From NCBI GenBank assembly GCA_022709425.1, contig JAKLIW010000003.1:102293-166292 (forward strand): DNA of 64,000 nt, read 5' to 3'. Numbering within the stretch: the first letter of the stretch is position 1; each line of letters begins with the position of its first letter. Below are positions 2,282-56,525 of the stretch, one piece after another. The translations under genes and the position numbers were made by a program. Source of the DNA: a bacterium. Its GTDB lineage: Bacteria > UBP6 > UBA1177 > JAKLFG01. The notes beneath the pieces were generated by a model. That model saw only the letters and a list, made by a program, of their open reading frames with translations, made no database searches and was not told the origin of the DNA.

Positions 2282-2431
2282 CTTCCTTCTCCTTTTTCCT
2301 ATTTTAATAAGACCGTCAAGTTGACCCCCGCTACGCAGGAGTGTCACTTATATCATGCAGGTCAAAAGAAATCAACAAATTGTCACTTATTCCCTGTAGA
2401 CCCATAGCCTGCAAAAACTACAATTGGGGCT

Positions 2432-2656
2432 ATGAAAGTGAAGGACATAAAGACGCGCTTCGGCGCTCGGCTTCGGCAACTCCGTAAGGAGAAAGAGCTC
2501 AGCCAAGAACAGCTCATGATGGCGACCGGCATCCACCGCACATATATCTCAGAGGTAGAGCGCGGGATACGAAACATCAGCCTTCTCAACATCGAGAAGA
2601 TCGCTAAAGCGCTCGAAGTGGACATCCGAGACCTGTTTGACTTCCGCTCTTCGTAG
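2432..2656 (+). CDS. XRE-family helix-turn-helix transcriptional regulator (Cro/C1-type)
   Basis: The 74-aa sequence RLRQLRKEKELSQEQLMMATGIHRTYISEVERGIRNISLLNIEKIAKALEV is a canonical HTH_3 signature. Confidence 0.85.
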   Translation: MKVKDIKTRFGARLRQLRKEKELSQEQLMMATGIHRTYISEVERGIRNISLLNIEKIAKALEVDIRDLFDFRSS

Positions 2657-2702
2657 AAAACACCCCCGATGAATGAAAGAGGGCCTGCTGTCTGGGGATG
2701 GG

Positions 2703-2735
2703 GGTGGGGGTGAGCAGCAGACCCACCTTTTCTTA
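2703..2735 (+). terminator. Possible intrinsic terminator after the XRE gene (ggtggg...cccacc stem plus ttttctt)
   Basis: A hairpin with a 6-bp GC stem is followed directly by a T-tract, about 50 nt after the stop codon. Confidence 0.35.
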
Positions 2736-2768
2736 TCCGTCGCGGTCGACGATGTCCAGTAAAATCGC

Positions 2769-3254
2769 CTACCCGTAACGTCTGACGAAGATATCCAGCG
2801 CCTTTCCATCGAGGAACTGCGAAGCGAACTGTTCGTCGCTGTGCTTCGGATACGCCTTCCACCAGAACGAAGTCTCATCCATTCCGACGAGAGAGCCCTC
2901 CATACGCTCTTCGTCGCCGTCGCGTAAGAACTCGCCCGATGCGATGCTCGTCTTCATCTCGTATGCGTCGATGATCCGGCACAGGTGGTTCTTCCGGGTG
3001 TTGTAGCGGAGCAGACCGTTCACTTCTTCTTCCGAGAAGACCGGGACCTTATCGACCCGGTAGTACCGCGCCGGGTAGTAGAAATGCATGTCACAGAACG
3101 GTTCGTCGCACGATTTCATGTCGCGGGCCACGGTCTGCCGGGCCAGAAGACGATGGCATTCTTCGACGGTCAGATCAACGAGGACCACATCGGGACCGTC
3201 GGAGTACTCGCCGGCATGGACCGGCAACATGATCAGGAGCGTCGGGTTCTTCAT
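2769..3254 (-). CDS. Hypothetical protein (162 aa). It is the last gene of the WYL-led operon.
   Basis: The internal Met (MKNPTLLIMLPVHAGEYSD...) overlaps the stop of the upstream 60-aa ORF in an ATGA-type overlap. The long-ORF N-terminal extension is low-complexity S/G/R sequence. No family was recognised. Confidence 0.5.
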   Translation of the reverse strand: MKNPTLLIMLPVHAGEYSDGPDVVLVDLTVEECHRLLARQTVARDMKSCDEPFCDMHFYYPARYYRVDKVPVFSEEEVNGLLRYNTRKNHLCRIIDAYEMKTSIASGEFLRDGDEERMEGSLVGMDETSFWWKAYPKHSDEQFASQFLDGKALDIFVRRYG

Positions 3255-3433
3255 GATGCCCTCCTTTTTGCGTCTCTCTTCAGAGCCGTTACTCGTGCCT
3301 TTGCTGCACTCGTCATAGCCCGGTCTGCTTTCCAAGGAGCCGTTCGCCGCTTGCTCGTCGCTGCTTCCCACTTCCTCGCCGGCCAAATTGCGATTGCCGC
3401 TCGAAGGTCGCGTACGGTGTACTTCATGGCCAC
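3251..3433 (-). CDS. Small basic K/R-rich protein (60 aa), hypothetical
   Basis: Its start lies 6 nt after the stop of the 3439..3813 gene, and its stop overlaps the start of the 2769..3254 gene. This is classic operon tiling. The composition is highly basic. Confidence 0.4.
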   Translation of the reverse strand: MAMKYTVRDLRAAIAIWPARKWEAATSKRRTAPWKADRAMTSAAKARVTALKRDAKRRAS

Positions 3434-4354: not shown

Positions 4355-4513
4355 TTTGACCCTCCTCGTGAAATTGATCCAACAACCAACTTGCTTATCG
4401 CAGCAGGTCGCACAGGTATATAATAGCAGCTTCCGGAGCAATATCACGAAAGAATTACTTTCGTTTTTGACAGTGAATTACTTTTGTGATTACAGGCGGA
4501 TATGACTTTTGCG

Positions 4514-33830: not shown

Positions 33831-36800
33831 TTAACACCCGCTGTCGTAGCAGTCGCCGTTATCCCAAGCGGTACAGGTGCTATTACAGATTGCCGAACCG
33901 CTGTCCCATTGTGTCGGATCGACCATCGCGCAATCTTCGCTGTTCCCGTCGCAGAACTCGCCCGGTTCGATGATGCCGTTGCCGCAGATAGCGGGAACGG
34001 TGTTATTCGTCGAAAGCTTTACCTTGTTCCCGTCAGGGATGTAGACCCAACCGTTGTACAGGTAGTTCTCCTGCATTTCGCGCATGTCGCCATCCAACTC
34101 AGTGTAGTCGATGTAGGTATTCGGCAGACCGGCGAAGCGATACTCATACCCGTCACAGGAGAGGTAGAACGCGCCGTGGTCGGTCGTCAGCTCTCCGGTC
34201 GAGCAGTACGGATAGTCCCACGCCTTCCGTGTTGCAAGGTTATCGACATCGCGGATATCGATGCCCGATGACCAGAAGTCGTCCCAGTACATCGCGATCT
34301 CGCCGTTCGTAATGGCGAAGTCCATGGTACTGCCGATGTTGACATAGGCTACGCGGGCAAAGTTTTCGGGGTTGCGGATGTTAATGCCGTTGTCGTCGCC
34401 GACATAGAGATTGCCGTTATAGAGTTGGATGCGGTACTGGTAGTTGTACGGCGTGCTGTAGAAGGAACCGATGATCGAAAGGGTGTCGGGATTGACGGTA
34501 TTGAGTTTGTAGATGCCGCCGCTGGTCGCCGCGTACATGATATCGCCGTCGGCCACTTCGAGGTCGTAGACGGTCTTGTTGGTGGTAAAGGTGCTCTTGA
34601 GAACCATCGCGTTCGGGTCGCTGATGTCGTAAACCTTGATTGCACTGCCGGTACCGACATAGAGGCGATCCCCCTTGCCTGCTACGCTGTAAACGGTCGA
34701 GCCGATCGAGTACTGCTTGTACCACGGGTGGGTGAATGGGGTGCAGATATTTCCGATAAAGGTACCCCCTTCAAGAATATCATCATTGTCATTCAAGCAA
34801 TAACTTGGTGGCGCGGTAATCTTTTGCTTAATGGTTATAGTTCTCTCAGCAAGAACGTCGCTTGCTCTATCAATCGTCAGCATGGATGTCGTTGTTTCCT
34901 CAGATTGTGGTTGGGTAATGAATTTAATCGTTTCGTCATCAATGATGGTAAATGTTTTATAAAGATCTATTTGCAGATTCTCTGCCAGCTGCTCAAGCCC
35001 ACCACTGGGAGAATAACGCCAGACATCGTTGATTGGCGTCGGGATTCCATTGTACAGATTGAAGCCTCCTAGCAGATAGATAACCCCATCGGGAGTTGTT
35101 GATATGTTGACAAAATTGCGAGGCAATGGCTTGGCGACCATGGGAATAACGTCAAATGTTGTAGTGGCAGAGTTGAATCTATGAAGTGTCAGCCCATCAA
35201 GCTCATGAGTCAAGGTATATAGTTTCGTGCCAGCTGCTATCAAATGGATAGCTCCGCTTACCTCTGGTAAAGTTCCAACATGGGTTAAAACATGGGTATA
35301 AGTTGTGGGCATTGTGAATTGCAGAGCCGATGAATCGCGTTGCTGTACGGAATAAAGGCTAGCGCCAATAGACACATAGAGCCTATCGTTTAATATCGCT
35401 CCACTCATTAGGTGTGCGCTTGCTGGGAGTGCAAAGGATCCGGCATATGCGGTGTCGCTGGGGCGAGCATCATTCTGGTACCGCAGTTCGACATATCTTT
35501 CATCTTCATGTTCGTAAAAAAGAATTGTCTCTCCAGCATATTGCAGGCCAAACTTTAGATTGGTTTGAGGAATGATTCTCTGGTTTTTTTCCAATTCTTG
35601 CGTGATACTGTTATACCGCCATAGGTCGAAACGGTCATCAGCATAAGGATATCCAGGTGTTGCCTCAGGCATAGTGTAGGTGATTTCAAAAGGAAGGCGA
35701 GGGGGAACGATAAAAACCTGATCGGGCGCGTAACTCATTCCTATCGCATAGGAAAGGGGCGTGCCGGAGAAGCTGTCTCGTGTTGAACGGGCAAAGATTC
35801 TGTCGTTCTTGAAGCAGGCGCTATTTTGTGTTTTGCCACCTTCGCCATCATCTACGAGGTCGTTGGCTTCTGTGCATTTCACGGTACCTTGAGGACCACC
35901 CGAAACGGCATAAGTGATAAAGGGATCGAGCGAAGGGTTATAAGTTGGCTCCTCATTAGCGACATGTTCTTCATATAAATCCAAGTATTCTCCTTCTAAG
36001 TCTGGTTTCCAGTCCCAAAGATGCGTTTGGTCCGGAGATTCTTCGTAGATTCCCTTTTGGCTTACGATATTATTTCCGGTAGGTACTTGCCATGATGGAT
36101 CAGTCCCCTGTCTGAGTGGCATAGGGTCGCTTCCGTGACTGTACGCGAAATCGCTAGAAAAGAGGAAGTGAATTGAAGATTCGTTGCTCGTTGTGCAGTA
36201 ACCGCCAGTACCCCAACGATTGCTATAATCACTTTGAGGCACCCAACAATAGCGAAGAATACTGGGATGCGCTATACTGTTGTAGACTGGCGCTCCTTGA
36301 GATATGACTCCTGAGTCATGATCTATTGCGACAAGACTGTTTATTTCACGAGATTGTACCTGACCACCATAAACGATTTCGTTCTTTGGAGAGCCATTAA
36401 CAAAACGAGAAGAAATAACAGTATGATGCCATCCGTCTCCCACAAGATTGTCAGGGCCTATCCCTTTGGGAGTATCACAGGCATCTCCGGTACCGTCCAA
36501 ATCATGATCGGGCTGCCATGTCCATTTTGAGAAAGATAAAAAAAGGTTAGGAGATGTTTTCAGATAACCGTATTTGAAAGTCTTTTTGTTGTATCGTGCT
36601 CCGCCCTCGTTTTCATTGGTACAGTGGGGCAGGGAAAGATCTCCATTTTGAAAGTAAGAAACTCCTGTTCTACATTCCCCCTGAATAAGTTCACTGTTCC
36701 AATCTTCAGCTTCCACAAAGGGGTTCCCCTTTTGTGGACAATTATCGCAGATGTCAGCGATACCATCGGTATCCGAGTCGGCAATGGGAGTTCCAAACTG

Positions 36801-38900
36801 ATCTATCCAATTACTGATGGCATACAGAGTAGGGCAAGGATCGACACAGTTCGGAACACCGTCGTTGTCGGCATCTCCAGAACTACCGCCCATCGGACAT
36901 GGATCACATTCATCAAGTATTCCGTCATTATCAAGGTCGCTGTATTCATAATAAGGAATGTTCTCTTCCACGTCATATCTATGTGGGCATAGGTCGCAGA
37001 CATTGCCCGCACCATCAAGATCATAGTCTTCCTGTGTAGAATTGTAGGTAGAGGGACAATTATCTATTAGGTCGGGCACTCCATCGTAGTCAGTGTCAAT
37101 GCTAACCGCCACCTCGGTATTCCAATCGAAGGTAAGCCTTCCCGTAGCAAGGTCGGCCGAACTTATCAGCCCTATATGCACCTTCTCCATCATCCAATAC
37201 TCCGATAACCTTTGACCCCGTGGCGCATTAATGCATCCGTTGACAGGATTATCTTTATCGCAATTACCGTAGGGACGGAATGAGAAAATGTATCGCGTAG
37301 TTGGATCCAATGTCGGAGACGGAAGCAACAGATATGTATCCTTGCCTTGATCTCTATCGCCATGACTATTGCGAATGATGTAGTAAATATCTTGGAAACC
37401 GTCACCGTTGGTGTCGCCTCCGCGTAGATAACCAACGATGTCAACGATGTGTCCTCTTATTCCAAAGTTATAGATTTGTGGTTGCCCCTGATTGTCGAAA
37501 TCCAAAGCCTCTGGATCAAGATTCCACGAACAGTCTTCCATTTTGTCGATGTTAGGCTTATCAAGACATGCCCCAATGTTTTGACCCGTTTCAGGCACAA
37601 TTTTGTAGTGTGCTTTATCTTGTGCGTGAATAAGCCTAAAATGAATATTGAGATCTTCTATTGATTGCGGCACCGTATTGTCGTGACGCAAATGCTCATT
37701 CCATGGCATCGGAATAATTACAACTCGGCCTCGGTTTATGGTCGTCATTATCTTTCTGTCCACCTCATACCAGTTTACCTGAAGCCTATCGAGAACCCAC
37801 TCGCCATTCGCATCTTTGTGATAGCCGCCGAAGGCTTCGCCTTGATCACCCATAGGATTTCCTCCCCACGGGCAAGCGGCCACACATAATGGGTGTTCGA
37901 GATCAAGATCACATGTAAACCCTTGCGGACAACTTCCGTTGTTGACGCACAATTTTCTCGGATTGTTTTTATCAACACAGTTCGGCCAAATATGGGCCAT
38001 GTACTGTTCGCTGATTTGCATTTCAGCCTTGTAGGCAGGGTAGAATCCCACTATGGGGTATGGAGCTTCCCATGCCGTTTTCACCATACAGGAGGAAGCT
38101 AAATCGTAATATAAGTTGAAATAACAATTCTCATTTGCACAATCGGAAAGATTGCCCGTACATGCAAAATACAGTTCGCTTTCGAAGGCTCCAAGCGATT
38201 GACACTCAGGGATACTTTGATATTTTTCAGCATAATGAGTAGCAGCAAACCCCAGTCGATTCCGCAACTCTTCCAAATAGGCCGTGGGACTATCTTCGCA
38301 TTCTGAAATTTCTGAGAATCCGGATTCTTTCTTCTTTCCTGGAAAGAAAGCATATGGAAATATTCTTTCCGGCAGAGACTTGTGCATTTCTCCTCCGCCC
38401 AAATAATCTTGAGTGTAATAACTTGCTTCTGAAAGATTGGTCGTGATGGGGCGACTCTGATCTTGTCCAATGTGCCGGAAAAGATTGTCGGGGAAACGTT
38501 GATACAACTCAATAGCCAGTAGCGATTCGAGGGAAGCATTTTCGCCGAAATCCCAGCATAGGCCAAAATCTTGTTGATTCCTCACCGGACCAAGAAAATT
38601 TTCGGGGCAGTGAAGAAGCGAGACCATCGCGTACTCACTCCCATTGAGCGACACCTGTAGGGGGAAAAGATCACATTGCTCTGTCACTGTGAGATCGTAG
38701 GGTGTTCGCTGTGGCACGGCGATATCGAACGAGTGTTGTAGGAGGTAAAGATTTTGCAATTCGGGAGACAGAAGAGGAATGGTCTCTTCCCCGTACACAT
38801 GAGTCACGAAGAAGAATATTATCAAGAAAAATCCCTTGGGTATTTTCCTTCCCAAAAGCAAATTGCCAATTCGACCCATGATACGATTAGAACTCTTCAT
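33831..38900 (-). CDS. Giant secreted protein (1689 aa) with thrombospondin type-3-like Ca-binding repeats and beta-propeller (LVIVD-like) repeats
   Basis: Signal peptide. Repeated DxDxDGxxDxxDNCP blocks (DTDYDGVPDLIDNCP, DLDNDGILDECDPCP, DADNDGVPNCVDPCP, DSDTDGIADICDNCP). Propeller-like repeats toward the C-terminus. GC is about 45%, against more than 60% for the flanks. Confidence 0.7.
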   Translation of the reverse strand: MKSSNRIMGRIGNLLLGRKIPKGFFLIIFFFVTHVYGEETIPLLSPELQNLYLLQHSFDIAVPQRTPYDLTVTEQCDLFPLQVSLNGSEYAMVSLLHCPENFLGPVRNQQDFGLCWDFGENASLESLLAIELYQRFPDNLFRHIGQDQSRPITTNLSEASYYTQDYLGGGEMHKSLPERIFPYAFFPGKKKESGFSEISECEDSPTAYLEELRNRLGFAATHYAEKYQSIPECQSLGAFESELYFACTGNLSDCANENCYFNLYYDLASSCMVKTAWEAPYPIVGFYPAYKAEMQISEQYMAHIWPNCVDKNNPRKLCVNNGSCPQGFTCDLDLEHPLCVAACPWGGNPMGDQGEAFGGYHKDANGEWVLDRLQVNWYEVDRKIMTTINRGRVVIIPMPWNEHLRHDNTVPQSIEDLNIHFRLIHAQDKAHYKIVPETGQNIGACLDKPNIDKMEDCSWNLDPEALDFDNQGQPQIYNFGIRGHIVDIVGYLRGGDTNGDGFQDIYYIIRNSHGDRDQGKDTYLLLPSPTLDPTTRYIFSFRPYGNCDKDNPVNGCINAPRGQRLSEYWMMEKVHIGLISSADLATGRLTFDWNTEVAVSIDTDYDGVPDLIDNCPSTYNSTQEDYDLDGAGNVCDLCPHRYDVEENIPYYEYSDLDNDGILDECDPCPMGGSSGDADNDGVPNCVDPCPTLYAISNWIDQFGTPIADSDTDGIADICDNCPQKGNPFVEAEDWNSELIQGECRTGVSYFQNGDLSLPHCTNENEGGARYNKKTFKYGYLKTSPNLFLSFSKWTWQPDHDLDGTGDACDTPKGIGPDNLVGDGWHHTVISSRFVNGSPKNEIVYGGQVQSREINSLVAIDHDSGVISQGAPVYNSIAHPSILRYCWVPQSDYSNRWGTGGYCTTSNESSIHFLFSSDFAYSHGSDPMPLRQGTDPSWQVPTGNNIVSQKGIYEESPDQTHLWDWKPDLEGEYLDLYEEHVANEEPTYNPSLDPFITYAVSGGPQGTVKCTEANDLVDDGEGGKTQNSACFKNDRIFARSTRDSFSGTPLSYAIGMSYAPDQVFIVPPRLPFEITYTMPEATPGYPYADDRFDLWRYNSITQELEKNQRIIPQTNLKFGLQYAGETILFYEHEDERYVELRYQNDARPSDTAYAGSFALPASAHLMSGAILNDRLYVSIGASLYSVQQRDSSALQFTMPTTYTHVLTHVGTLPEVSGAIHLIAAGTKLYTLTHELDGLTLHRFNSATTTFDVIPMVAKPLPRNFVNISTTPDGVIYLLGGFNLYNGIPTPINDVWRYSPSGGLEQLAENLQIDLYKTFTIIDDETIKFITQPQSEETTTSMLTIDRASDVLAERTITIKQKITAPPSYCLNDNDDILEGGTFIGNICTPFTHPWYKQYSIGSTVYSVAGKGDRLYVGTGSAIKVYDISDPNAMVLKSTFTTNKTVYDLEVADGDIMYAATSGGIYKLNTVNPDTLSIIGSFYSTPYNYQYRIQLYNGNLYVGDDNGINIRNPENFARVAYVNIGSTMDFAITNGEIAMYWDDFWSSGIDIRDVDNLATRKAWDYPYCSTGELTTDHGAFYLSCDGYEYRFAGLPNTYIDYTELDGDMREMQENYLYNGWVYIPDGNKVKLSTNNTVPAICGNGIIEPGEFCDGNSEDCAMVDPTQWDSGSAICNSTCTAWDNGDCYDSGC

Positions 38901-39266
38901 GAAGGCTCCCTCTTATTTGGGTAAGAAATACATCGCAAATTACTTTTTTCATCTATTGGGTAAGACCCCTCGCTTGGCGATTGAAGAAACAAAGCCGCAA
39001 TCAAAAACTCCCGTTCCTTGCCCTTTGAGATACCAAAAAACCCATGAAGGATTCAGGGTTTTCCAATATATTTTGTATCCTTCCGTTTTTATTTGGCTAT
39101 ATCTTTCTCTGACTGAGAGTCTGATCTCGCCTTGCTTCGGCAAGAAGACTTGCCCCCGCATCAACCCCATGCAGATACCTTCCGGCTTTTGACTAATTAC
39201 TCCCATATTAGGGATGGTTCCGCAGAAGAAATCAAGTTTTCCGTGAGAGAGGATATTACCGGTTCC

Positions 39267-40028
39267 TCACTTCTTCCCGATGGCCTTCTTCTTGCGCATA
39301 GACTCGCCCTTGATCTCGATGCGGTGAGCCGAATGGACCAGACGGTCGAGGATGGCGTCGGCGATGGTGTGGTCGCCGATCACATCGTGCCACTCCTTGA
39401 CCGGCAGTTGCGAGGTGATGATGGTGGCTTGTTTGCCGTGGCGGTCCTCGAGAAGATCAAGAAGGATCAGGCGTGCCTCACCATCGAGCGGTTGAAGACC
39501 AAAGTCATCGAGAATGAGGAGCTGCTGCTTGGCGATACGGGCGATGGCGCGGGGATAGGAGTTGTCGGCTTTCGACATCTTGAGATCGGCAAGGAGCCGG
39601 TTGGTGTTGGCGTAGAGTACCCGGTACTGCTTGAGGCAGGCATGGTGACCGATCGCCGAGGCGACATAGCTCTTGCCGGCGCCGGTCGCCCCGGTGACGA
39701 TGATGTTCTCGGCCTGATCGATGAATGTGCAGGCGGCCAGACGGGCCAATTGGGTCTTGTCGATGTTGCGGGCGGCCGAGAAGTCGAGTTCGGCCACCAA
39801 TGCCTGATACCGGAACTTCGCCTGCTTGATACGGCGGGCCTGTGTCTTCTGCTGCCGGTACAGCCACTCGGCCTCCACCAACATGTTCACGATCTCGTCG
39901 TTGGTGTAGCGGGCCCGGGTCTCCTGCGCGGTGTTCCATGCGTCGCGCATGCCGAACAGCTTGAGTTCGTTCATCTTAGCGATGGTGGTGCTCATCTGGT
40001 GCCTCCTAGCGGTAATCGTTTCGTACAT
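39267..40028 (-). CDS. istB: IS21-family helper ATPase IstB
   Basis: 253 aa. Walker A NIIVTGATGAGKSY. DnaA/IstB-like AAA. Overlaps the istA stop. Confidence 0.9.
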   Translation of the reverse strand: MYETITARRHQMSTTIAKMNELKLFGMRDAWNTAQETRARYTNDEIVNMLVEAEWLYRQQKTQARRIKQAKFRYQALVAELDFSAARNIDKTQLARLAACTFIDQAENIIVTGATGAGKSYVASAIGHHACLKQYRVLYANTNRLLADLKMSKADNSYPRAIARIAKQQLLILDDFGLQPLDGEARLILLDLLEDRHGKQATIITSQLPVKEWHDVIGDHTIADAILDRLVHSAHRIEIKGESMRKKKAIGKK

Positions 40029-41541
40029 TATGGTGCAACGGCAAGGCGTACTGTGTCGGGGCGGGCGTCAGGCGGTCGAGGTCTTTTTTCAGGATTGACT
40101 CGATGCTGTGGTAGCTGTAGTTGTCGAAGAGGGCGGCCCGCTTGCAGGCATTGTTGAGTCGGTACGGGCCGTACCGGTTCTCCTTGGCCAGAGCGAGAAT
40201 GCCCAAACAGGCGCGAAACGCGATGTGGGGATGCGGTCTGCTCGCTATCAGCGCCTTGAGGTATGCCGCCGTTTCGGGACCGATGGTCGCACCCTTGGCG
40301 ACGATGCGTTCCTCGCTCCATTCGGTGAGTTCGGGTTGGTGTTTCGGCGGGAGGTGGGCCGGGATCAGTTGGTACCGTTCCCCGGTGCGGACATGGTAGG
40401 CGATGCGACGATTGTTGTGGATGACCTCAAGGTGTCGGGCGCTGTAGACGACCTCCACGGTCTTGCCGATATAGGGATAGGGAACGCTGTAAAAGTTCAG
40501 GTCTTCGCTTGCCTGTATGAAACAGAACTTGCTCACCTTCTTCGTCTCGTAGCGCTTCGGTTCATAGCGGTCTATCGGGAGCGGCCTCAGAGTTTCCTTC
40601 TCTCCCGTCTCGAAGAGGTCGCGTCTACTCTCGCTCCTGTTGGTCAGCGGCGCGTCGTTCAGGGCGTCAACGAGTTCTCTGATGCGCCGGTTAAGGGTCT
40701 CAAGGTCGAAGAAGGTCTCATTCCTGAGTAGAGCGTAGACATTCCGGTAGACGATCTTCACCATGTTCTCGACATGGGCTTTGTCCTTGGGAGCGGCGGT
40801 TCTCGTCGGATGCGCCGAGGTGCCGTAGTGGGTACAGAAGTCCTCGAAGGTGCGGTTCAATTCTGGTTCGTACCGGTGCGCCTTGGTGACGGCGCTTTTC
40901 ATGTTGTCGGGTACGATGAGGGAGGGGACCCCGCCCAGGTACTCGAGGGCGTTCTCCAAGCCGTAAAGAAAATGGGCCGTCTTCTGGCTCTGGACCGCCT
41001 CCGCGTAGCCGAGGCCGCTGTAGGGAAGAACGGCGACCAGTACCTCGGCTTCCCATATCTCGCCCGTGTCGCGGTCGACCAGCGGCAGTTTGCCGCCCGC
41101 GAAGTCCACGAACAGCTTGTCGCCCGCCTTGTGCCGGAGGTAAACCGAGCTTTCCATCTGCCGCAGGGCGCGTTTCAGGTGGGCACAGAACTGGGTGTAG
41201 GCGTACCCATCGGCATGGCGTTCCCGGTACTCCACCCACAGGCGTTTCTTGTCCACGCCACGCTTGCCGAGTTCCTTTTCCATGTAGGGGATCTCTTCCA
41301 TGAGCGTCTTGAAGCGTTCCGGTTCCGCCGGACCTTTATAGAAAAGCTCCTCGAGGTCCTCATCGCTGAGTTCGAGCACCTCGGCAAGGGGGAGTTCGCT
41401 CCTGAGGAAGGCTTGGTAGTAGTTGCCGACCGTCGTCTTGCTGACATCAAGTATCCTCGCCACGCTTCGGTCGCTCCGGCCTTCCTCCAATCTCAGTTTC
41501 AGCAGTTTGCGTACTTTCATGCGGTCCTTCCTCCGGTTCAT
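40006..41541 (-). CDS. istA: IS21-family transposase IstA (HTH + DDE)
   Basis: 511 aa. N-terminal HTH (RSVARILDVSKTTVGNYY). Integrase-core region. Typical IstA length and organisation. Confidence 0.9.
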   Translation of the reverse strand: MNRRKDRMKVRKLLKLRLEEGRSDRSVARILDVSKTTVGNYYQAFLRSELPLAEVLELSDEDLEELFYKGPAEPERFKTLMEEIPYMEKELGKRGVDKKRLWVEYRERHADGYAYTQFCAHLKRALRQMESSVYLRHKAGDKLFVDFAGGKLPLVDRDTGEIWEAEVLVAVLPYSGLGYAEAVQSQKTAHFLYGLENALEYLGGVPSLIVPDNMKSAVTKAHRYEPELNRTFEDFCTHYGTSAHPTRTAAPKDKAHVENMVKIVYRNVYALLRNETFFDLETLNRRIRELVDALNDAPLTNRSESRRDLFETGEKETLRPLPIDRYEPKRYETKKVSKFCFIQASEDLNFYSVPYPYIGKTVEVVYSARHLEVIHNNRRIAYHVRTGERYQLIPAHLPPKHQPELTEWSEERIVAKGATIGPETAAYLKALIASRPHPHIAFRACLGILALAKENRYGPYRLNNACKRAALFDNYSYHSIESILKKDLDRLTPAPTQYALPLHHNVRNDYR

Positions 41542-41704
41542 GCATTCCTCCGCCGTTGTTAAAAAGGCGGCGGAAGTCTAGTCCGTTTTTCTTCCTGCGC
41601 TATTTATGCTGTCTGGCTGACCCCTCAGAAGAGGGTGGCCACTTTGACCGAATTACCCGGCCAGTTTGCTCCGAATTGGCCGGTCAGTTTGGACCGAATT
41701 TTCC

Positions 41705-41788
41705 ATGGGGCCTCGGTTCGGGGATGGGGATCTCTTTCAGTTGCAGGACCTCGGGCGGTCCGTATTCGGTGTAGACGACGGCTTTCAT
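41705..41788 (-). pseudogene. 5' fragment (28 codons) of a zinc-type quinone oxidoreductase/MDR-family gene truncated by the IS21 insertion
   Basis: The reverse complement reads RBS GGAG, then ATG AAA GCC GTC GTC TAC ACC GAA TAC GGA CCG CCC GAG GTC CTG CAA CTG AAA GAG... (MKAVVYTEYGPPEVLQLKE), running straight into the IS terminus. Confidence 0.6.
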
Positions 41789-41799
41789 GCGCTCACTCC
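41744..41799 (+). repeat. Repeat A copy 1 (~55 bp: RBS plus the first ~15 codons of the oxidoreductase-like gene)
   Basis: aggacctcgggcggtccgtattcggtgtagacgacggctttcatgcgctcactcc recurs almost identically at 42986-43041. Confidence 0.7.
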
Positions 41800-41869
41800 T
41801 TTGCGGCATAGTTCACACTCGGTCTACCATGGCGGTCGCGCCGGGTGAAGTCAAGAGAAATCGGGCTGG

Positions 41870-41967
41870 CGCATCACCGCGTCTTTCTCACCAAAGGCCA
41901 GTACCGCAAGTTGGAGAAGAAGGGAAATGAAAAGTTGTGTTAATATAGATGTGACCCCGTTTGGCCC
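41870..41967 (+). repeat. Repeat B copy 1 (~95 bp: gcgcatcaccgcgtcttTctcaccaaaggccagtaccgcaagttggagaagaag...tagatgtgaccccgtttggccc)
   Basis: Three copies in the window (41870, 42887, 44153). All have an identical ~50-bp core and a conserved 3' tagatgtgacccc box. Each lies downstream of a minus-strand accessory gene. Confidence 0.75.
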
Positions 41968-41997
41968 TCTACATCCCCAAAGGGCTGACCAGCGTAT

Positions 41998-42759
41998 TCA
42001 TATGTGTTTTCTAGCCCTTACCCAAAGGAATCCTTCTTGGCCGAGCGTATAAGACAAGTTTCCGGTGAGGAAAGGTAGGTATATGTTTTCCGGAGGCCCC
42101 TTCACGGCTACCCGATACGACACTATATCCAGCATATTCAGCAAATTGTTTTTGATGATTTCCTCATTCAATTGCTGAGGTTCACAAGATGTGGCCGGTT
42201 CTTCCAAATTAAAACTACCGATAAACTCTCCCCCCGGTTTCAGAACTCGAACGATTTCATGGCACATGGCGGCGAAATTATCGACATGGTCTATCGCATT
42301 CAAGGTGAACATCACATCAACAGAGTCCGATGGCAGAGGAATAACTTTCTCTGTGGATTTCAAGTAGATCATGCCGTGAGAAATGATGTTGTCCGTGAAC
42401 TCATCGGCATATCTGTCCGCAAGCACATCAATCCCGATCCGCAGAGATGCCTGCTCCGCCCAAACAAGGCTTCCGCGTGGGCCGCAACCGAAATCAGCAA
42501 CGATCTTTCCTTTGAGAAAATCGTCCGTGGATTCCCCTGCTATCGCAAGCATCAATTCCTTATAGTGGGCGTTACGAAACTTGCCTTTGTCGATTTCCAA
42601 TCTGCTTCTCCAAAAGGACAATTCGGCCGCATCCTTTGTAATAAACAACAATTCGACACCATGTCTTCTGGCCATGGCGACGAGGCTCCTTCGTGCCGGG
42701 TGATAGAGCCGTTTCAAGAATTTCGGAGAGATGCGCTTCAGAATATCTCGTAGCGACAT
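41998..42759 (-). CDS. Class I SAM-dependent methyltransferase (Methyltransf_11-like)
   Basis: 253 aa. Motif I IVADFGCGPRGSLV. Post-I acidic residue. LKPGGEFIGSFN. Confidence 0.7.
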   Translation of the reverse strand: MSLRDILKRISPKFLKRLYHPARRSLVAMARRHGVELLFITKDAAELSFWRSRLEIDKGKFRNAHYKELMLAIAGESTDDFLKGKIVADFGCGPRGSLVWAEQASLRIGIDVLADRYADEFTDNIISHGMIYLKSTEKVIPLPSDSVDVMFTLNAIDHVDNFAAMCHEIVRVLKPGGEFIGSFNLEEPATSCEPQQLNEEIIKNNLLNMLDIVSYRVAVKGPPENIYLPFLTGNLSYTLGQEGFLWVRARKHI

Positions 42760-42886
42760 GGGAACTTCCTCTTAAGCGGTGGTATTTCATCCGTCGGCGG
42801 AACGGCCTATGCTAACCGATAGCTCTCCATTAGTCAAGGTCGATCCGGCAACTCTTCTGTCGTCCGGCATCTTGCGTCCCATAATC

Positions 42887-42982
42887 GCATCATCGCGTCT
42901 TCCTCACCAAAGGCCAGTACCGCAAGTTGGAGAAGAAAGGGGAAAAAAGTTGCGTTAATATAGATGTGACCCCGTTTGGCCC
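42887..42982 (+). repeat. Repeat B copy 2
   Basis: cgcatcatcgcgtcttcctcaccaaaggccagtaccgcaagttggagaagaaagg...tagatgtgaccccgtttggcccc. Repeat A copy 2 follows it directly. Confidence 0.75.
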
Positions 42983-42985
42983 CCC

Positions 42986-43041
42986 AGGACATCGGGCGGT
43001 CCGTATTCGGTGTAGACGACGGCTTTCATGCGCTCACTCCT
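42986..43041 (+). repeat. Repeat A copy 2 (a partial duplicate of the oxidoreductase 5' end, fused to the NTase gene stop)
   Basis: caggacatcgggcggtccgtattcggtgtagacgacggctttcatgcgctcactcc. The reverse complement gives MKAVVYTEYGPPDVL and then diverges into repeat B. Confidence 0.7.
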
Positions 43042-43564
43042 TCATTTTACTGAATTCATTGAACTTCGCGGTCATTCCTTCGGCCTTCGACCAGCGTTCT
43101 ATCTCCTTCATATCGACCGGATGGGTCCGCGCCACCATCAGTGCCTGTTCCAGCGACTGCCGGTCGTTCCAGAAATAGAATGCCGCCAGCCGGTCCATCA
43201 CGCAGTAGGTCGGCGTCAGCAGTTTCAGATAGCCGCTCCGCGTCGTTATCTCGTTGAATTCCCGCACCGGTTTGTCTCCCACCGAGAGCGGTGGAGAGGG
43301 AAACTCGACGAACAGTTCGGTGTCGGGGTGGGTGAAGTAGCGCCCTTTGTTCTTCGCGAATCCGATGGCGGCGATTGCCTCTTCGATCTCCTTCATCGAT
43401 GCCGACGAGATGAAATCGAGATCGTTGGAGCGGTAGCGGTTCTCGGTGTAGATGGATACCACCGCGCCGCCGGTCAGCACCGCGTCGATCCCGTTCTTTT
43501 TCAGCGCCCCGCAAACGATGAGCGCCAGATCCTTGATGGTCGTCTTTGCCGTTATCTTTTTCAT
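43034..43564 (-). CDS. Nucleotidyltransferase-fold protein (MNT-like), likely one half of an NTase/HTH pair
   Basis: 176 aa. GGAVVSIYTENRYRSNDLDFI resembles the G[GS]...D.D motif of the minimal NTase fold. 4-nt overlap with the upstream HTH gene. Confidence 0.5.
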   Translation of the reverse strand: MKKITAKTTIKDLALIVCGALKKNGIDAVLTGGAVVSIYTENRYRSNDLDFISSASMKEIEEAIAAIGFAKNKGRYFTHPDTELFVEFPSPPLSVGDKPVREFNEITTRSGYLKLLTPTYCVMDRLAAFYFWNDRQSLEQALMVARTHPVDMKEIERWSKAEGMTAKFNEFSKMKE

Positions 43565-43887: not shown

Positions 43888-44152
43888 TGATGACCTCCGA
43901 AGTAGTTCACATGACCCACAATAACGGTCGTTTGGAAAGAAGTCAAGAGAAAGTTTCTGAGCGGCACTTACTTGATATTCGGCGGCGGTTGTTTTATCAT
44001 GCGCAGGTCATGGCAGGGAGATTCTCATGGTAACGAAAAGAGTAGAGGATGCGAACACGCGGTATTATATCGATCTGGACTTGAGAAAGGGGGTGATCAT
44101 CGGGTGGGATTTCGGTCAGCGGGAGCAGTTGTCTCAGGAACTGCCCGACCCG

Positions 44153-44240
44153 GCGCATCACCGCGTCTTCCTCACCAAAGGTCAGTACCGCAAGTTGGAG
44201 AAGAAGAAATCTATAAAAAATTAGATGTGACCCCAATGGT
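44153..44240 (+). repeat. Repeat B copy 3 (core conserved, with a divergent AT-rich 3' variant)
   Basis: cgcatcaccgcgtcttcctcaccaaaggtcagtaccgcaagttggagaagaag...ttagatgtgaccccaatggtcc. It lies inside the 3' end of a 65-aa ORF (44027..44224). Confidence 0.7.
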
Positions 44241-44332
44241 CCTTCCAATGGTCCATTCGAGGCGGAAAACATAACGACATGGTTTGCGGAATAGAATGTT
44301 CCTCGGTGTTAAACTGATGGAGAGAAAACACT

Positions 44333-45340
44333 ATGAAACACTTTTTATGGATGCTTGTCTTTGTAAGTGCTGTGTTCCTGCTTACCCCTGCCGTCGGCGG
44401 AGAAACAAAAAAACCAGATACTGTTAAATGGACAGAACACGCCGGGTTGCAATGGTCTGACAAATCAACCGATGCAATGCAATGGCAGGCCGGAGAGGAT
44501 TACTGTACCGCGATGGGCGGTAGACTCCCAACCATATCAGAACTGCGTAAGCTCATTATCAATTGCCCCGAATTGGAATCGGGCGGATCCTGCAAGGTAT
44601 CATCAGAAGCGCCGGTATGTCTCGAGTATGTTTGTCAGGTTCCTTCCAAAACATGCATGTGTGCATCCCGCAATGCTAGTGCCGCCACCTATTCAGCGTT
44701 AGGTGATGCTACTAACACTGCGCTCTGGTCGTCATCGTCCGATCCTTATGGCTCTAACAATGCATGGCATGTGTATTTCCCGGGCCTTTTGGCCAGCGCT
44801 AATAATAATAAGTACGACAAACACAATGTCAGGTGTGTGAAGAATATCACATCGAAAACAGGGGAGGCTGTTGTTGTCCCGGCCACTGCAAAAAAGGACA
44901 ATAATAACCCCCAACCTGAAGAAACAGCAGCTGTTAAATGGACAACTCACGCAGGGCTTGAATGGTCGCCACGGTCAGAAGAGATGATGAATTGGCAGGC
45001 CGCAAATCATTATTGTAGCTCTATTGGCGGCAGACTTCCCACCATATCAGAATTGCGTAAAATCATCATAAACTGCCCCGGTAGCACCTACGGCGGAGCC
45101 TGTAAAGTAATTTCGGAAGAACCGGTATGTCTGGATGTTAGTTGTTATGAAGATAGCAAATGCCAATGTGACGGCTCTGCCGATTCATATTCAGCGTTGA
45201 ATGATGACAAGAATGGCCATCTATGGTCATCTACGTCCCTTGTCAAATACTCCGACGCCGTATTTGTTGTCCACTTCGTCAGCGGCAGTATCTACACCCC
45301 CAATAAGTACCACAACTTCCAAGCCCGCTGTGTGAGATGA
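44333..45340 (+). CDS. Secreted protein with two DUF1566 (Lcl C-terminal-like) domains, low GC
   Basis: Signal peptide. Two repeats of VKWTEHAGLQWS...MQWQAGEDYCTAMGGRLPTISELRKLIINCP, matching the DUF1566 pattern. An AT-rich segment. Confidence 0.65.
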   Translation: MKHFLWMLVFVSAVFLLTPAVGGETKKPDTVKWTEHAGLQWSDKSTDAMQWQAGEDYCTAMGGRLPTISELRKLIINCPELESGGSCKVSSEAPVCLEYVCQVPSKTCMCASRNASAATYSALGDATNTALWSSSSDPYGSNNAWHVYFPGLLASANNNKYDKHNVRCVKNITSKTGEAVVVPATAKKDNNNPQPEETAAVKWTTHAGLEWSPRSEEMMNWQAANHYCSSIGGRLPTISELRKIIINCPGSTYGGACKVISEEPVCLDVSCYEDSKCQCDGSADSYSALNDDKNGHLWSSTSLVKYSDAVFVVHFVSGSIYTPNKYHNFQARCVR

Positions 45341-54314: not shown

Positions 54315-56525
54315 ATGCGGAAATTCATGTTAGCGATCATTCTGTTTCTGTTCGCCTCTTACGCCGGTGTCGCCTTTGCCGCGCCCGGAGACGAGCGGTG
54401 GATCAGCATGAACCCCGAATTGGCGGGGACCAACGGACCGGTCACCGTCATGAAACGCGCCGGGGGGTATCTCTATGTCGCCGGGAGTTTCACGGTGGTC
54501 AGAGATGTCTTGGCGCGGAATATCGCGCGGCTGCATCTGCCGACCGATGTGTGGGAACCGCTGGGCACCGGCTTCTCCGCGGTCCGCGATATTGCTGTCG
54601 CAGATGATGGCACGATCTATCTGTATGCCGTCTCCGATGAGGGGATGACGGGTATTTTCCACGGGAAGGATGGCCTCTACGAACTCATCGGGACGGTGAC
54701 GGAGGAGGCGGTGGTCAATTCGATGGGAACCGACGGCACCGGGAATCTGTATGTTTCGGGCGATCTCAGTGCGGTGAACGATACCCCGGTCAGGGGGATG
54801 GCCCGGTGGGACGGTGTTTCATGGGAGGATATCGGCGATGCCAGAGCCATGCCCGAAAATGGGTTTTGGCTTGTTGTCGATGTCGCGGGGGGGCTGTACC
54901 GCTATGATCGCTGGGCCCTTTGCGAACGCCGGGCCGGCGCCGTATGGGAGGATATCGCCCCGGCGGACGTCGGCAACTATCCTGCTGTGCTGGCGCTCGA
55001 CGCCACGGGGGATCTGTATGCGCAAGTGTTGCATCTGCCCGGCGACGGCACACCCGGATATGTTCAGGTGTATCGCTGGGAAGGGGGCAATCAATGGACT
55101 TCTTTCTGCGATGGTCTTTCGGGGCTCTATGACGATATGTTGTTCGACCCGGACGGACGGCTCTTTCTCCGATCGGCCGAGGAACAGCAGATAAGCGTCT
55201 GCGGAGAGGGCTCGCTGACCCTGCTCCGGAATTTTGGAGCCGCTGTCCATGCCATGGCGGTCGGTGATGACGGCGATTTCTATGCGGCGGGAGCATTCCC
55301 CGGCTACCTGTTGCGCCGCGAAGGCGGTTCGTGGGGACCGGTCGGCGATGGTATGTTGAGCGCCCTTTCCGGCATGATAACGGATGCACAGGGGACGCTT
55401 CACCTCAGCGGCTCGTTCTCCGCGACTGATGCCTGTCTGGCGCGGTACGACGACGGGTTAGCCGCCCCGTTCGGTAACGATACCGCCGGCTGTGGGCTGT
55501 TGGGCTTCGACACGCAGGATCGCCTGATCGTCAGCGGCTGGTGGGAAATGCCGCGGAGAAGCGTCAGTTGGGTCACGCATGTTCGGCGATGGGATGGCGC
55601 GTGGACGACACTTGGGGAGAACGGTTTTGGAGATGGCGCATACGGATTTGCGAATGTCGCTGTTTGGGATGCGACGGGCGATCTCTATGTCGCCGGAACT
55701 TTCGAGTTCTTCGGCGACGCGGTGAATAACATCGCTCGTCTGGACGGCACGACATGGGCTCCTTTGGGTGCGGGGACCAATGAGGAGGTGCTGGCACTGG
55801 CGGCTGGTATCGATGGCGGTATCTACGCGGGCGGCCTGTTCACCACGGCGGGAGATATGAATGCGGCGCATGTGGCCCATTGGGACGGCACGTCGTGGCA
55901 TTCGCTCGGTGCCGGAACCGACGGAACGGTCAACTCCCTCGCGGTCGGCCCGACCGGCATGCTCTATGCGGGCGGCGATTTCACCGTGGCGGGCGATAAG
56001 GCCGCGTCGCACATCGCACGGTGGGACGGAACGGCGTGGCACCGGCTCGGTAGCGGCATGAACGGGACGGTCTCTAAGATAGTGGTCGATGGGGCCGGGC
56101 GGCTGTATGCGGCGGGCGATTTCACCGAAGCGGGCGGGGTGGCGGTCAACCATCTGGCGCGCTGGGACGGGACGGTGTGGCACCCGCTCGGAAGCGGCGC
56201 GGACGACACCGTGAAGTATCTGGCGGCGGGGAAAAGCGATACGCTCTATGCCGGCGGTGAATTCACCAGTGTCGGCGGCAAGTCCAGTTTCTATCTTGCC
56301 GCTTACTCTACGGAGAACGAAGAGTCGGTTTCCGGGGAGGAGGTGTTGGACGACGAGTTCATCCCTGACGATGATGCATTGATAGGGGACGAAAGTGACG
56401 AAAATGATCTGGTGGATGAGGAAGAAATAGGGGACTCGCCGTTCACAGCTCACGACTCACTTGTCGCGGATGCCGACACCGCCACGCCCAACGACCACGG
56501 CTGCGGCTGTTCGATGGTGTTCTAA
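54315..56525 (+). CDS. Secreted protein with ~10 delta-60-like beta-propeller repeats (ARWDGT.WH.LG.G.NG.V..L.V...G.LYAGG.FT.AG) and an acidic C-terminal tail ending GCGCSMVF
   Basis: Signal peptide MRKFMLAIILFLFASYAGVAFA. Tandem ~55-aa repeats. A D/E-rich tail. Confidence 0.6.
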   Translation: MRKFMLAIILFLFASYAGVAFAAPGDERWISMNPELAGTNGPVTVMKRAGGYLYVAGSFTVVRDVLARNIARLHLPTDVWEPLGTGFSAVRDIAVADDGTIYLYAVSDEGMTGIFHGKDGLYELIGTVTEEAVVNSMGTDGTGNLYVSGDLSAVNDTPVRGMARWDGVSWEDIGDARAMPENGFWLVVDVAGGLYRYDRWALCERRAGAVWEDIAPADVGNYPAVLALDATGDLYAQVLHLPGDGTPGYVQVYRWEGGNQWTSFCDGLSGLYDDMLFDPDGRLFLRSAEEQQISVCGEGSLTLLRNFGAAVHAMAVGDDGDFYAAGAFPGYLLRREGGSWGPVGDGMLSALSGMITDAQGTLHLSGSFSATDACLARYDDGLAAPFGNDTAGCGLLGFDTQDRLIVSGWWEMPRRSVSWVTHVRRWDGAWTTLGENGFGDGAYGFANVAVWDATGDLYVAGTFEFFGDAVNNIARLDGTTWAPLGAGTNEEVLALAAGIDGGIYAGGLFTTAGDMNAAHVAHWDGTSWHSLGAGTDGTVNSLAVGPTGMLYAGGDFTVAGDKAASHIARWDGTAWHRLGSGMNGTVSKIVVDGAGRLYAAGDFTEAGGVAVNHLARWDGTVWHPLGSGADDTVKYLAAGKSDTLYAGGEFTSVGGKSSFYLAAYSTENEESVSGEEVLDDEFIPDDDALIGDESDENDLVDEEEIGDSPFTAHDSLVADADTATPNDHGCGCSMVF

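Follow-up and report, generated by a model that had tools for sequence, protein, structure and literature searches.

Truncated starts of a quinone-oxidoreductase-like gene beside a one-ended IS21-family element: probable scars of rearrangement in an uncultured bacterial clade

Adjacent deletions and pseudogene formation associated with insertion sequences (ISs) are known in IS-rich genomes, for example those of Yersinia pestis and Shigella. Short duplications can arise by unequal crossing-over or by homology-facilitated illegitimate recombination, the latter reportedly described by de Vries and Wackernagel in 2002. Elements of the IS21 family, such as IS21 and IS5376, encode a DDE transposase, IstA, and an AAA+ helper ATPase, IstB, and duplicate 4–8 bp of target sequence. 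The terminal inverted repeats (TIRs) of IS21 elements consist of at least two direct repeats (L1/L2 and R1/R2) and a terminal CA, and IstA requires two complete repeats in a TIR for integration (PMC10122671). Here, we analyse a 64,000-nt stretch of contig JAKLIW010000003.1 (positions 102,293 to 166,292; assembly GCA_022709425.1), called the window below. In it, an IS21-family element meets the first codons of a medium-chain dehydrogenase/reductase (MDR) gene resembling quinone oxidoreductases, here named qor, and the start of the same gene recurs 1.2 kb away. We consider these remnants to be probable scars of rearrangement without a function of their own, left by an IS-associated loss of qor and by recombination between two arrangements of the gene, called alpha and beta below.

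The locus resembles the IS-adjacent deletions of Y. pestis and Shigella in that a gene ends precisely at an IS terminus, its remainder is gone, and there is no target duplication. It also resembles them in that different truncated genes stand at the same IS end in two lineages, whereas the other junction is shared. However, the element in the window is one-ended, so that classical two-ended intramolecular transposition is unlikely, and we infer the mechanism from the anatomy of the locus. What is seen here is ordinary genome decay, an IS-associated truncation together with a short duplication from illegitimate recombination, and it needs no new mechanism. The locus is also a natural example of the reshuffling of small gene modules by short anchors and IS elements.

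The 58-nt repeat and the two starts of qor

Most genes of the locus are coded on the minus strand, and gene order is given on that strand (coordinates in Table 1). Compared loci and contigs are given as L with a number. A direct repeat at 41744–41801 (A1, copy 1) and 42985–43042 (A2, copy 2) is identical at 57 of its 58 nt, a match that far exceeds chance within 64 kb. The original prediction had noticed a duplicate of about 55 bp at these places, which is real and comes to 58 nt when the copies are aligned. The sole mismatch, C at 41750 and A at 42991, makes codon 13 GAG (E) in copy 1 and GAT (D) in copy 2. The minus-strand sequence of the copies is AAGGAGTGAGCGC-ATG-AAAGCCGTCGTCTACACCGAATACGGACCGCCCGA(G/T)GTCCTG, and they encode MKAVVYTEYGPP(E/D)VL, the first 15 codons of qor. 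The ribosome-binding site (RBS) and start, in the form GGAG-N7-ATG, and the MDR-like N-terminus that follows had been pointed out before, and the RBS and start can be read directly in either copy.

In copy 1, the frame opens with the ATG at 41788 and carries on as LQLKEIPIPEPRP plus CA to 41706. The left terminus of the IS, TGGAAAATTCGG, begins at 41705, the base right after copy 1. The earlier statement that the gene reads right up to the IS was correct to within 1–2 bases, but the IS terminus supplies part or all of the codons for the last residues assigned to it, H and G. In copy 2, AAG-GAG-TGA (43042–43034) forms the final two codons and the stop of an open reading frame (ORF) for a nucleotidyltransferase (NTase)-like protein. 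Past codon 15 (42985), copy 2 changes abruptly to a second repeat, B (42984–42884). The sharing of the NTase stop codon and the sudden switch into repeat B had both been predicted, and they were read directly at 43034 and 42985. The ATG of copy 2, at 43029, opens a 24-codon ORF that runs into B2 (MKAVVYTEYGPPDVLGGQTGSHLY, followed by a stop). The qor coding sequence left in the window amounts to 83 nt in one copy and 45 nt in the other, with neither a GroES-like core nor a Rossmann domain. Neither the 34-codon ORF beside the IS nor the 24-codon ORF that follows the NTase gene is a gene; both are pseudogene fragments.

The end of the NTase gene can be compared with that of its relatives. In the close relatives L008–L012, the homology with the window sets in at the −35 box (43939–43960). 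It ends exactly at the edge of A2, 43041, in L008, the closest of them, and about 10 nt earlier, at 43051–43052, in L011 and L012. The protein ends in KMKE in the window (AAAATGAAGGAGTGA) and in KMNN in L008 (AAAATGAATAACTGA), and the tails of other relatives are KMTA, RGAL, and AAV. These alignments show that the NTase ORF of the window takes its end from the ribosome-binding region of qor, joined through a microhomology of 1–2 nt. For annotation, this means that the last two codons of the NTase gene derive from the ribosome-binding region of another gene.

Intact qor genes of 333 aa are present at the same locus in related metagenome-assembled genomes (L061, 5705–6706; L067, 8198–9199). L061 (JAKQHE010000082.1), which was found through a DNA pattern scan for the core of B in the GTDB representative genomes, shares 87.5% identity with the window over hydG and the genes next to it. 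L067 (GCA_964412895.1), which was reached via a member of the NTase cluster, is syntenic with the window and 85% identical to it, and its qor is 90% identical to that of L061. Both qor proteins carry the Pfam domains ADH_N, ADH_zinc_N, and ADH_zinc_N_2. For the L061 protein, the best NCBIfam model is quinone_pig3, with E = 1.9e-50 and a score below the family cut-off, and the PDB matches are quinone oxidoreductases such as 3tqh (E = 3e-32) and 1qor. The domains, the quinone_pig3 score, and the PDB matches of these full-length orthologues bear out the description of the gene as quinone-oxidoreductase-like. The 28-aa peptide of the window itself has no match in Pfam, and a 49-aa relative (P0002) gives only E = 0.12–0.18. 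A protein search with the 41-aa read-through ORF returned three short fragments and no full-length close homologue.

When the L061 qor was compared with the window by tblastn, aa 1–28 aligned at 41788–41705 (75% identity, E = 2e-9) and aa 1–15 at 43029–42985 (87% identity). No qor sequence past aa 28 was found anywhere in the 64-kb window, in agreement with the proposal that the rest of the oxidoreductase has been lost. The fragments match the first 28 and 15 residues of orthologues among the MDR quinone oxidoreductases (Qor/zeta-crystallin, PIG3 type), but the GroES-like ADH_N and Rossmann ADH_zinc_N domains present in L061 and L067 are absent from them. The fragments are orthologous to this family without being functional members of it.

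The homology extends upstream of the gene. The window and the qor loci, including the upstream region, show 84–88% nucleotide homology, and L061, L067, and the contig L006 continue the reading frame of copy 1. In L061, a partial B is followed by a homologue of P1 and then by the intact qor, beginning MKAIVYTEYGPPEVLHLQEVPTPEPKPNEV; blastn aligns L061 5589–5778 with window 41907–41715 at 84%. This arrangement, B-P1>qor, is common to L061 and the window and is what we call beta. P1 resembles the upstream region of the L061 qor and also the P3 region (43918–43952 onward), at 71%. In L067, an acetyltransferase gene precedes qor, and the homology of the qor 5′ region to the window begins at 41802, that is, at the RBS. 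On these comparisons, the context of copy 1 (B1-P1-A1) appears to be ancestral and older than the lineage of the window, and A2 appears to be a secondary scar.

The IS21-family element and its junctions

The claim that the inserted element belongs to the IS21 family is confirmed by domain matches of both its proteins. IstA matches the Pfam models rve, Mu-transpos_C_2, and, weakly, HTH_23 (PF22483, E = 9.9e-13; rve, E = 4.3e-6, with 27.4 bits falling below the cut-off of 32.6 bits). IstB matches IstB_IS21 (PF01695, E = 1.8e-67), and istB has an RBS and an ATG at 39995, 8 nt after the istA stop. The best annotated relatives, at about 43% amino acid identity, are named 'IS21 family transposase'. 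The nearest complete elements found are 73–77% identical in nucleotides, and the element is not a named IS. Its left end carries direct repeats of the form AATTCGG-N2-3-CAAACTGRCC, with CCGAATTNNCCGGNCAGTTTG present twice and a third, imperfect copy. The left end, ...TTTTCCA, lies at 41705, and a complete relative, L065 (73% identical), aligns from exactly this base.

The right end of L065 has two inverted copies of the repeat and the terminus ...CCGAATTGTCCA, about 90 nt past the istB stop. The left-end repeat motif was not found elsewhere in the 64 kb, either by an inverted-repeat search or by two motif searches with 3 mismatches allowed. The reverse-complemented left end was also compared, by local alignment against a shuffled null, with the istB-distal 320 nt. 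The window scored 9 and L064 scored 10, which is the null level, and the positive control L065 scored 33, with a null maximum of 18. An 8-nt vestige of the right end (..TTTCCA) is present in L063 and L064 and is mutated in the window. No target-site duplication was found by inspection: the left flank ends ...GAGGCCCCA, and no matching bases follow istB. The sequence beyond the other side of the IS is AT-rich, as had been stated.

Like IS21 and IS5376, the element has an istA-istB operon, direct repeats at the left end, and a terminal CA. Unlike them, the copy in the window lacks the right TIR (R1/R2) and a target-site duplication, and unlike typical members of the family, it is fixed beside the same neighbour gene in a distant relative, L064. 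It is a new, unnamed IS21-family member that fails two features of the family, the right TIR and the target duplication, and this copy is probably immobile.

The comparison with L064 (ENA ERZ6864144) bears on the age of the two junctions. At 919–3416, L064 carries an IS that is 77% identical in nucleotides to the copy in the window. The two share the odd sequence after istB (GGAAAACTTGATTTC...), and neither has a right TIR. A protein homologous to the giant protein of the window is encoded downstream of the IS in L064 (48% amino acid identity over 573 aa, E = 4e-161). The left end of the IS in L064 abuts a 144-aa gene cut at about codon 3, next to ndk. In L010, an Lcl_C-like gene and the winged helix-turn-helix (wHTH)-NTase module come after this 144-aa gene, and the DNA lost in L064 plausibly included genes like those of the window. 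The junction of the IS with the giant-protein region is old and common to L064, whereas the junction of qor with the IS is specific to the lineage of the window. Since the right junction is the same and the left junctions are different and precise, at least one left junction must have come from a replacement of the flank that preserved the terminus. For a copy without a right TIR, homologous recombination with a second, complete copy inserted nearby would be likelier than an adjacent deletion mediated by the IS ends.

Between the window and L064, IstB is 82% and IstA 71% identical, but the giant protein only 48%. Both ORFs, istA and istB, are uninterrupted, and comparison with L064 gives ratios of nonsynonymous to synonymous substitution (dN/dS) of 0.16 and 0.24 at dS of 0.66–0.85, a sign of purifying selection. 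A one-ended copy might be kept in this state by gene conversion from active copies, or it might have been domesticated. The giant protein, a secreted surface protein, has thrombospondin type 3 (TSP3) repeats and Kelch-like motifs. In its N-terminal half, the window and L064 have diverged strongly, whereas the central 570 aa are 48% identical.

Origin of the rearranged locus

We suggest an order of events and a mechanism of recombination that would account for this anatomy. In this clade, qor, starting at its RBS AAGGAG, sits behind different upstream partners. One arrangement is beta; in another, alpha (NTase>qor), qor would have stood directly after the wHTH-NTase module, and A2 would be a remnant of it. 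Alpha may have arisen by deletion in an ancestor similar to L067, in which the NTase gene and qor have the same orientation and lie 2.65 kb apart. On this reading, the window holds the 5′ end of alpha and, after it, a whole beta unit. Most simply, alpha would have been joined to the block B2-methyltransferase-B1-P1-qor in one recombination, with one crossover in homologous qor sequence and the other an illegitimate joint linking codon 15 of qor to the outer end of B2. The recombining alpha and beta may have come from two strains or have been two copies, and the joining route could have been unequal crossing-over or homology-facilitated illegitimate recombination. At the left end of the IS, the body of qor past codon 28 would have been lost by an adjacent deletion or by recombination with a second IS copy located in qor.

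In the 715-nt contig L006, a wHTH gene is followed directly by a qor with the D13 (GAT) allele of A2 that reads on to codon 47; thus, in a relative, the module is directly linked to a longer qor. The proposed recombination would explain both boundaries of the 58-nt repeat: one is the RBS, from which the two contexts share homology, and the other is an arbitrary codon. In this respect, the locus is like homology-facilitated illegitimate recombination, with one boundary at the start of homology and the other without homology, although here the process is deduced from the anatomy and no donor and recipient pair was observed.

Several points weigh against this reading. The order of events is not uniquely reconstructable, and the layouts of L061, L062, L067, and L069 all differ. 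An NTase gene followed by a full-length qor was not seen; L006 is without an NTase gene, short, and of low coverage. Furthermore, its ends, 1–20 and 696–715, are reverse complements of each other (CCCAGTCACGATA and TATCGTGACTGGG), and the apparent stop in its qor is probably an assembly artefact at the contig end. The assignment of A1 and A2 to two alleles rests on one single-nucleotide difference, and the common boundaries of B1 and B2 also fit a local duplication. The second IS copy required for recombination is assumed and not observed, and the deletion route is hypothetical for an element without a right TIR. Finally, the absence of the 3′ part of qor is established for the 64-kb window and not for the rest of the genome.

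The main rival for the origin of A2 is a local tandem duplication of the segment bounded by the outer end of B and codon 15 of qor, after which the contents of the upstream copies were replaced or deleted, with no second allele or incoming DNA involved. Such an event would create exactly the joint found at A2, in which codon 15 of qor meets the outer end of B. It would also suit B1 and B2, which share both boundaries and a variant of the tail that is absent from B3, and the direct orientation of all the repeats. However, the spacings do not match, since the distance is 1241 nt between the A copies and 1015–1016 nt between the B copies, in the order A-B...B-P-A. The NTase gene, and not P1, precedes A2, the methyltransferase gene between the B copies has no counterpart in the relatives, and several extra events would be needed. 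We regard this origin as unlikely.

Repeat B is the relic 3′ end of orf65: its three copies in the window all align to nt 126–180 of that gene. Within the clearly homologous coding part, the copies differ by four substitutions (CAC/CAT, TTT/TTC, AAG/AAA, and GGC/GGT), all of which are in the third position and synonymous in the frame of orf65. Because the differences are only synonymous, the copies must have diverged as parts of functional genes, and they are relics of paralogues or alleles and not a non-coding repeat. The orf65 family comprises 11 clusters among 5.8 billion proteins, is restricted to this lineage, and has members of 64–83 aa. The core ..TRYYIDLDL..GWDxGQR..HHRVFLTKGQYxKLEKK is conserved, and the C-terminal tails vary, changing after ..YRKLEKK. 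The protein has no match in Pfam, NCBIfam, or PADLOC, and B has no match in Rfam. The core of B gave two genome matches across 185,579 GTDB species representatives, and three copies are in the window.

Fragments of orf65 lie at gene boundaries elsewhere in the clade. In L061, nt 129–165 lie upstream of qor, and the first 12 codons precede a second MDR gene; in L062, nt 158–178 follow a different methyltransferase gene; and in L069, nt 144–180 are doubled, flanking a 128-aa gene on both sides. Between hydG and this region, the genes differ in all five genomes examined (the window, L061, L062, L067, and L069). The region, beside hydGEF, is a clear hot spot of recombination, and its variability across these genomes makes it a useful marker for strain typing in this uncultured clade. 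Single-gene units with their own promoters may be gained, lost, and stacked via the 55-nt core of orf65, with no dedicated recombinase nearby. As explanations of the present locus, a gene-exchange hot spot anchored by orf65 beside hydGEF and a domesticated, one-ended IS21 IstA/IstB pair are, taken together, rather improbable.

The complete orf65 genes lie at 4453–4650 in L061, 2495–2704 in L062, 3761–3976 in L067, and 5823–6029 in L069. The gene is the constant neighbour of hydG, and its surroundings are all variable. At L069 5823–6460, and also in L070 and L071, the 128-aa gene is inserted at the 3′ end of orf65 between direct duplications of the B core of about 37–41 nt, which makes it another case of a one-gene insertion bordered by B sequence. 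At L061 7700–7785, the first 12 codons of orf65 (ATGGTAACGAAGAAGATCGAAGATGCGAACACGCGG) lie directly upstream of the RBS of the second MDR paralogue, which is convergent to qor. Other identities considered for B were set aside. With no Rfam match, only three copies in the window, and two GTDB genome matches, it is neither a known RNA nor a dispersed repeat. B and the adjacent promoter do not form a single longer repeat unit, as units 1 and 2 are convincingly homologous in B only, and the TTGACT box that they share is not significant. A template/variable repeat pair of a diversity-generating retroelement was discarded, as the copies do not differ specifically at adenines and no reverse transcriptase was seen in the vicinity. 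B is also unlikely to be a dif- or attC-like site; the weak resemblance to a XerD arm, 8 of 11 positions, is found in B1 and B2 but not in B3.

Integron gene cassettes and the pdif modules of Acinetobacter are known cassette-type systems. In a similar way, B and the adjacent promoter could be a recombination site that swaps single-gene modules, with the 58-nt relic as a by-product. The locus is like these systems in having single genes of the same orientation, a toxin-antitoxin-like pair included, split by a repeat of about 100 nt. Three B-promoter>gene units stand in tandem in the window, orf65 or its fragments border variable genes in the window, L061, L062, L067, and L069, and the one-gene insert in L069 is flanked by a B duplication of about 40 nt. 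Unlike in integrons, however, there is no integrase or recombinase among the Pfam-labelled genes of the flanks, ~10 kb to one side and ~7 kb to the other, and B is a coding fragment on the strand opposite to the genes that it separates. No matching pairs of integron-type attC cores (RYYYAAC...GTTRRRY) were seen by eye in B1, B2, or B3, nor was there an Rfam match to B. The ends of the fragments are scattered, at nt 126–158 for the inner and nt 165–180 for the outer end. A core with matches in only two of the 185,579 representatives is not a dispersed site, and the homology of units 1 and 2 outside B is not convincing. Cassette exchange of this kind is, in our view, a distinctly doubtful explanation.

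It might also be argued that the repeats gave a chimeric or collapsed contig and that the real qor is intact or simply interrupted. Repeats of 58 nt and about 100 nt are present in the region, and the independent short-read contigs all break inside the IS, but such breaks are expected of a multi-copy element. Contigs from three other assemblies were obtained by exact-protein look-up. L001 (ENA ERZ27257456) is 99.976% identical to window 53564–41244 over 12.3 kb, and L002 and L003 (JGI 3300010429) are 100% identical down to 41275. L004 (ENA ERZ761563; 39613–32052) and L005 (JGI; 41401–33267) are 100% identical across istB and its junction with the giant-protein region. Within istA, L001 and L005 have about 158 nt in common, and hence the whole path is covered. 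Each key junction was seen at least twice independently: A2|B2, B1-P1-A1, and qor′|IS-left are the same in ERZ27257456 and JGI 3300010429, and the junction of istB with the giant-protein region is the same in ERZ761563 and the JGI sample. Furthermore, the repeats are shorter than the k = 141 in the MEGAHIT-style contig labels of ENA, and B1 and B2 are only 93% identical. Identical junctions in three independent metagenome assemblies make misassembly unlikely, and, as judged from contigs, we consider an artefact very improbable. A simple, recent IS21 insertion with the remainder of qor directly across the element has next to no probability and is refuted for this window: although the left terminus meets qor precisely at the terminal CA and both ORFs of the element are intact, it has neither a right TIR nor a target-site duplication, the window holds no qor sequence past aa 28, and the right flank is the upstream region of the giant protein, which is common to L064 with its different left flank; the original prediction had likewise held that the insertion was not a simple one.

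Features of the locus and neighbouring genes

Table 1. Coordinates of the features discussed, as positions in the 64-kb window
Feature	Position	Strand	Remarks
orf65	44027–44224	+	65 aa; 3′ part and trailer are B3 (44152–44243)
Promoter P3, intergenic	43946–43918	−	TTGACT-17-TATTGT; from promoter scan; drives the wHTH-NTase module
wHTH protein, ArsR-like	43887–43561	−	108 aa
NTase-like protein	43564–43034	−	176 aa; 4-nt overlap with the wHTH gene
A2, copy 2 of the 58-nt repeat	42985–43042	−	
B2, second relic of the orf65 3′ part	42884–42984	+	93% identical to B1; abuts A2 without spacer
Class I S-adenosylmethionine (SAM)-methyltransferase	41998–42759	−	253 aa; between B1 and B2
B1, relic of the 3′ part of an orf65 paralogue	41868–41967	+	nt 126–180 and variant tail
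P1, promoter-like relic upstream of qor′	41802–41867	−	TTGACT ... GTGAACTA
A1, copy 1 of the 58-nt repeat	41744–41801	−	RBS AAGGAG, 7 nt, ATG, 15 codons
qor′, copy 1	41706–41788	−	27 codons and 2 nt; ends at the IS left terminus
IS21-family element	39229–41705	−	low-coordinate boundary approximate, since the right TIR is absent
istA	41541–40006	−	within the IS21-family element
istB	39995–39267	−	within the IS21-family element
IS left TIR	~41625–41705		three direct repeats of ~23 nt and terminal CA
AT-rich flank	38901–39228		328 nt; right-hand side of the IS
Giant TSP3/Kelch-repeat protein	33831–38900	−	1689 aa; no qor sequence inside

The wHTH and NTase genes lie side by side in the same orientation in about 45 of the 53 related loci compared (L008–L060, from metagenomes of many environments). 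The pair recurs there as a unit, together with its own promoter, in many unrelated surroundings. The wHTH protein matches PDC-M05A of PADLOC at 5.9e-9. The NTase-like protein gives two sub-threshold matches, DUF2204 (E = 0.0013, 18.8 bits against a cut-off of 20.3) and AbiEii of PADLOC (E = 0.031), and it has no sequence match in the PDB. Type IV toxin-antitoxin systems of the AbiEi/AbiEii kind and the DUF2204 NTases offer a similar pairing of a small wHTH gene with an NTase-like gene, here of about 175 aa. Unlike in AbiEi/AbiEii, both proteins of the window are much smaller, and the profile matches are sub-threshold only. The pair is likely a toxin-antitoxin or defence-like module.

The methyltransferase matches Methyltransf_11 of Pfam (E = 5.5e-10). 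The exact protein was found only on contigs with the same layout, and tblastn gave no copy of it in the related loci. Its GC content, 48.5% against 47–48% in native neighbours, is uninformative as a sign of foreign origin.

The lipoprotein gene of the Lcl_C/DUF1566 type at 44333–45340 has an internal duplication, with 44409–44570 and 44919–45080 being 76–79% identical. Its relatives in L067 (167 aa) and L062 (157 aa) are shorter and have a single domain. Two tandem arrays lie elsewhere in the window, one at 283–1412 with a period of 171 nt and about 6 copies that are 62–78% identical, and one at 55802–56212 with a period of 141 nt and 3 copies. Both probably encode repeats inside genes.

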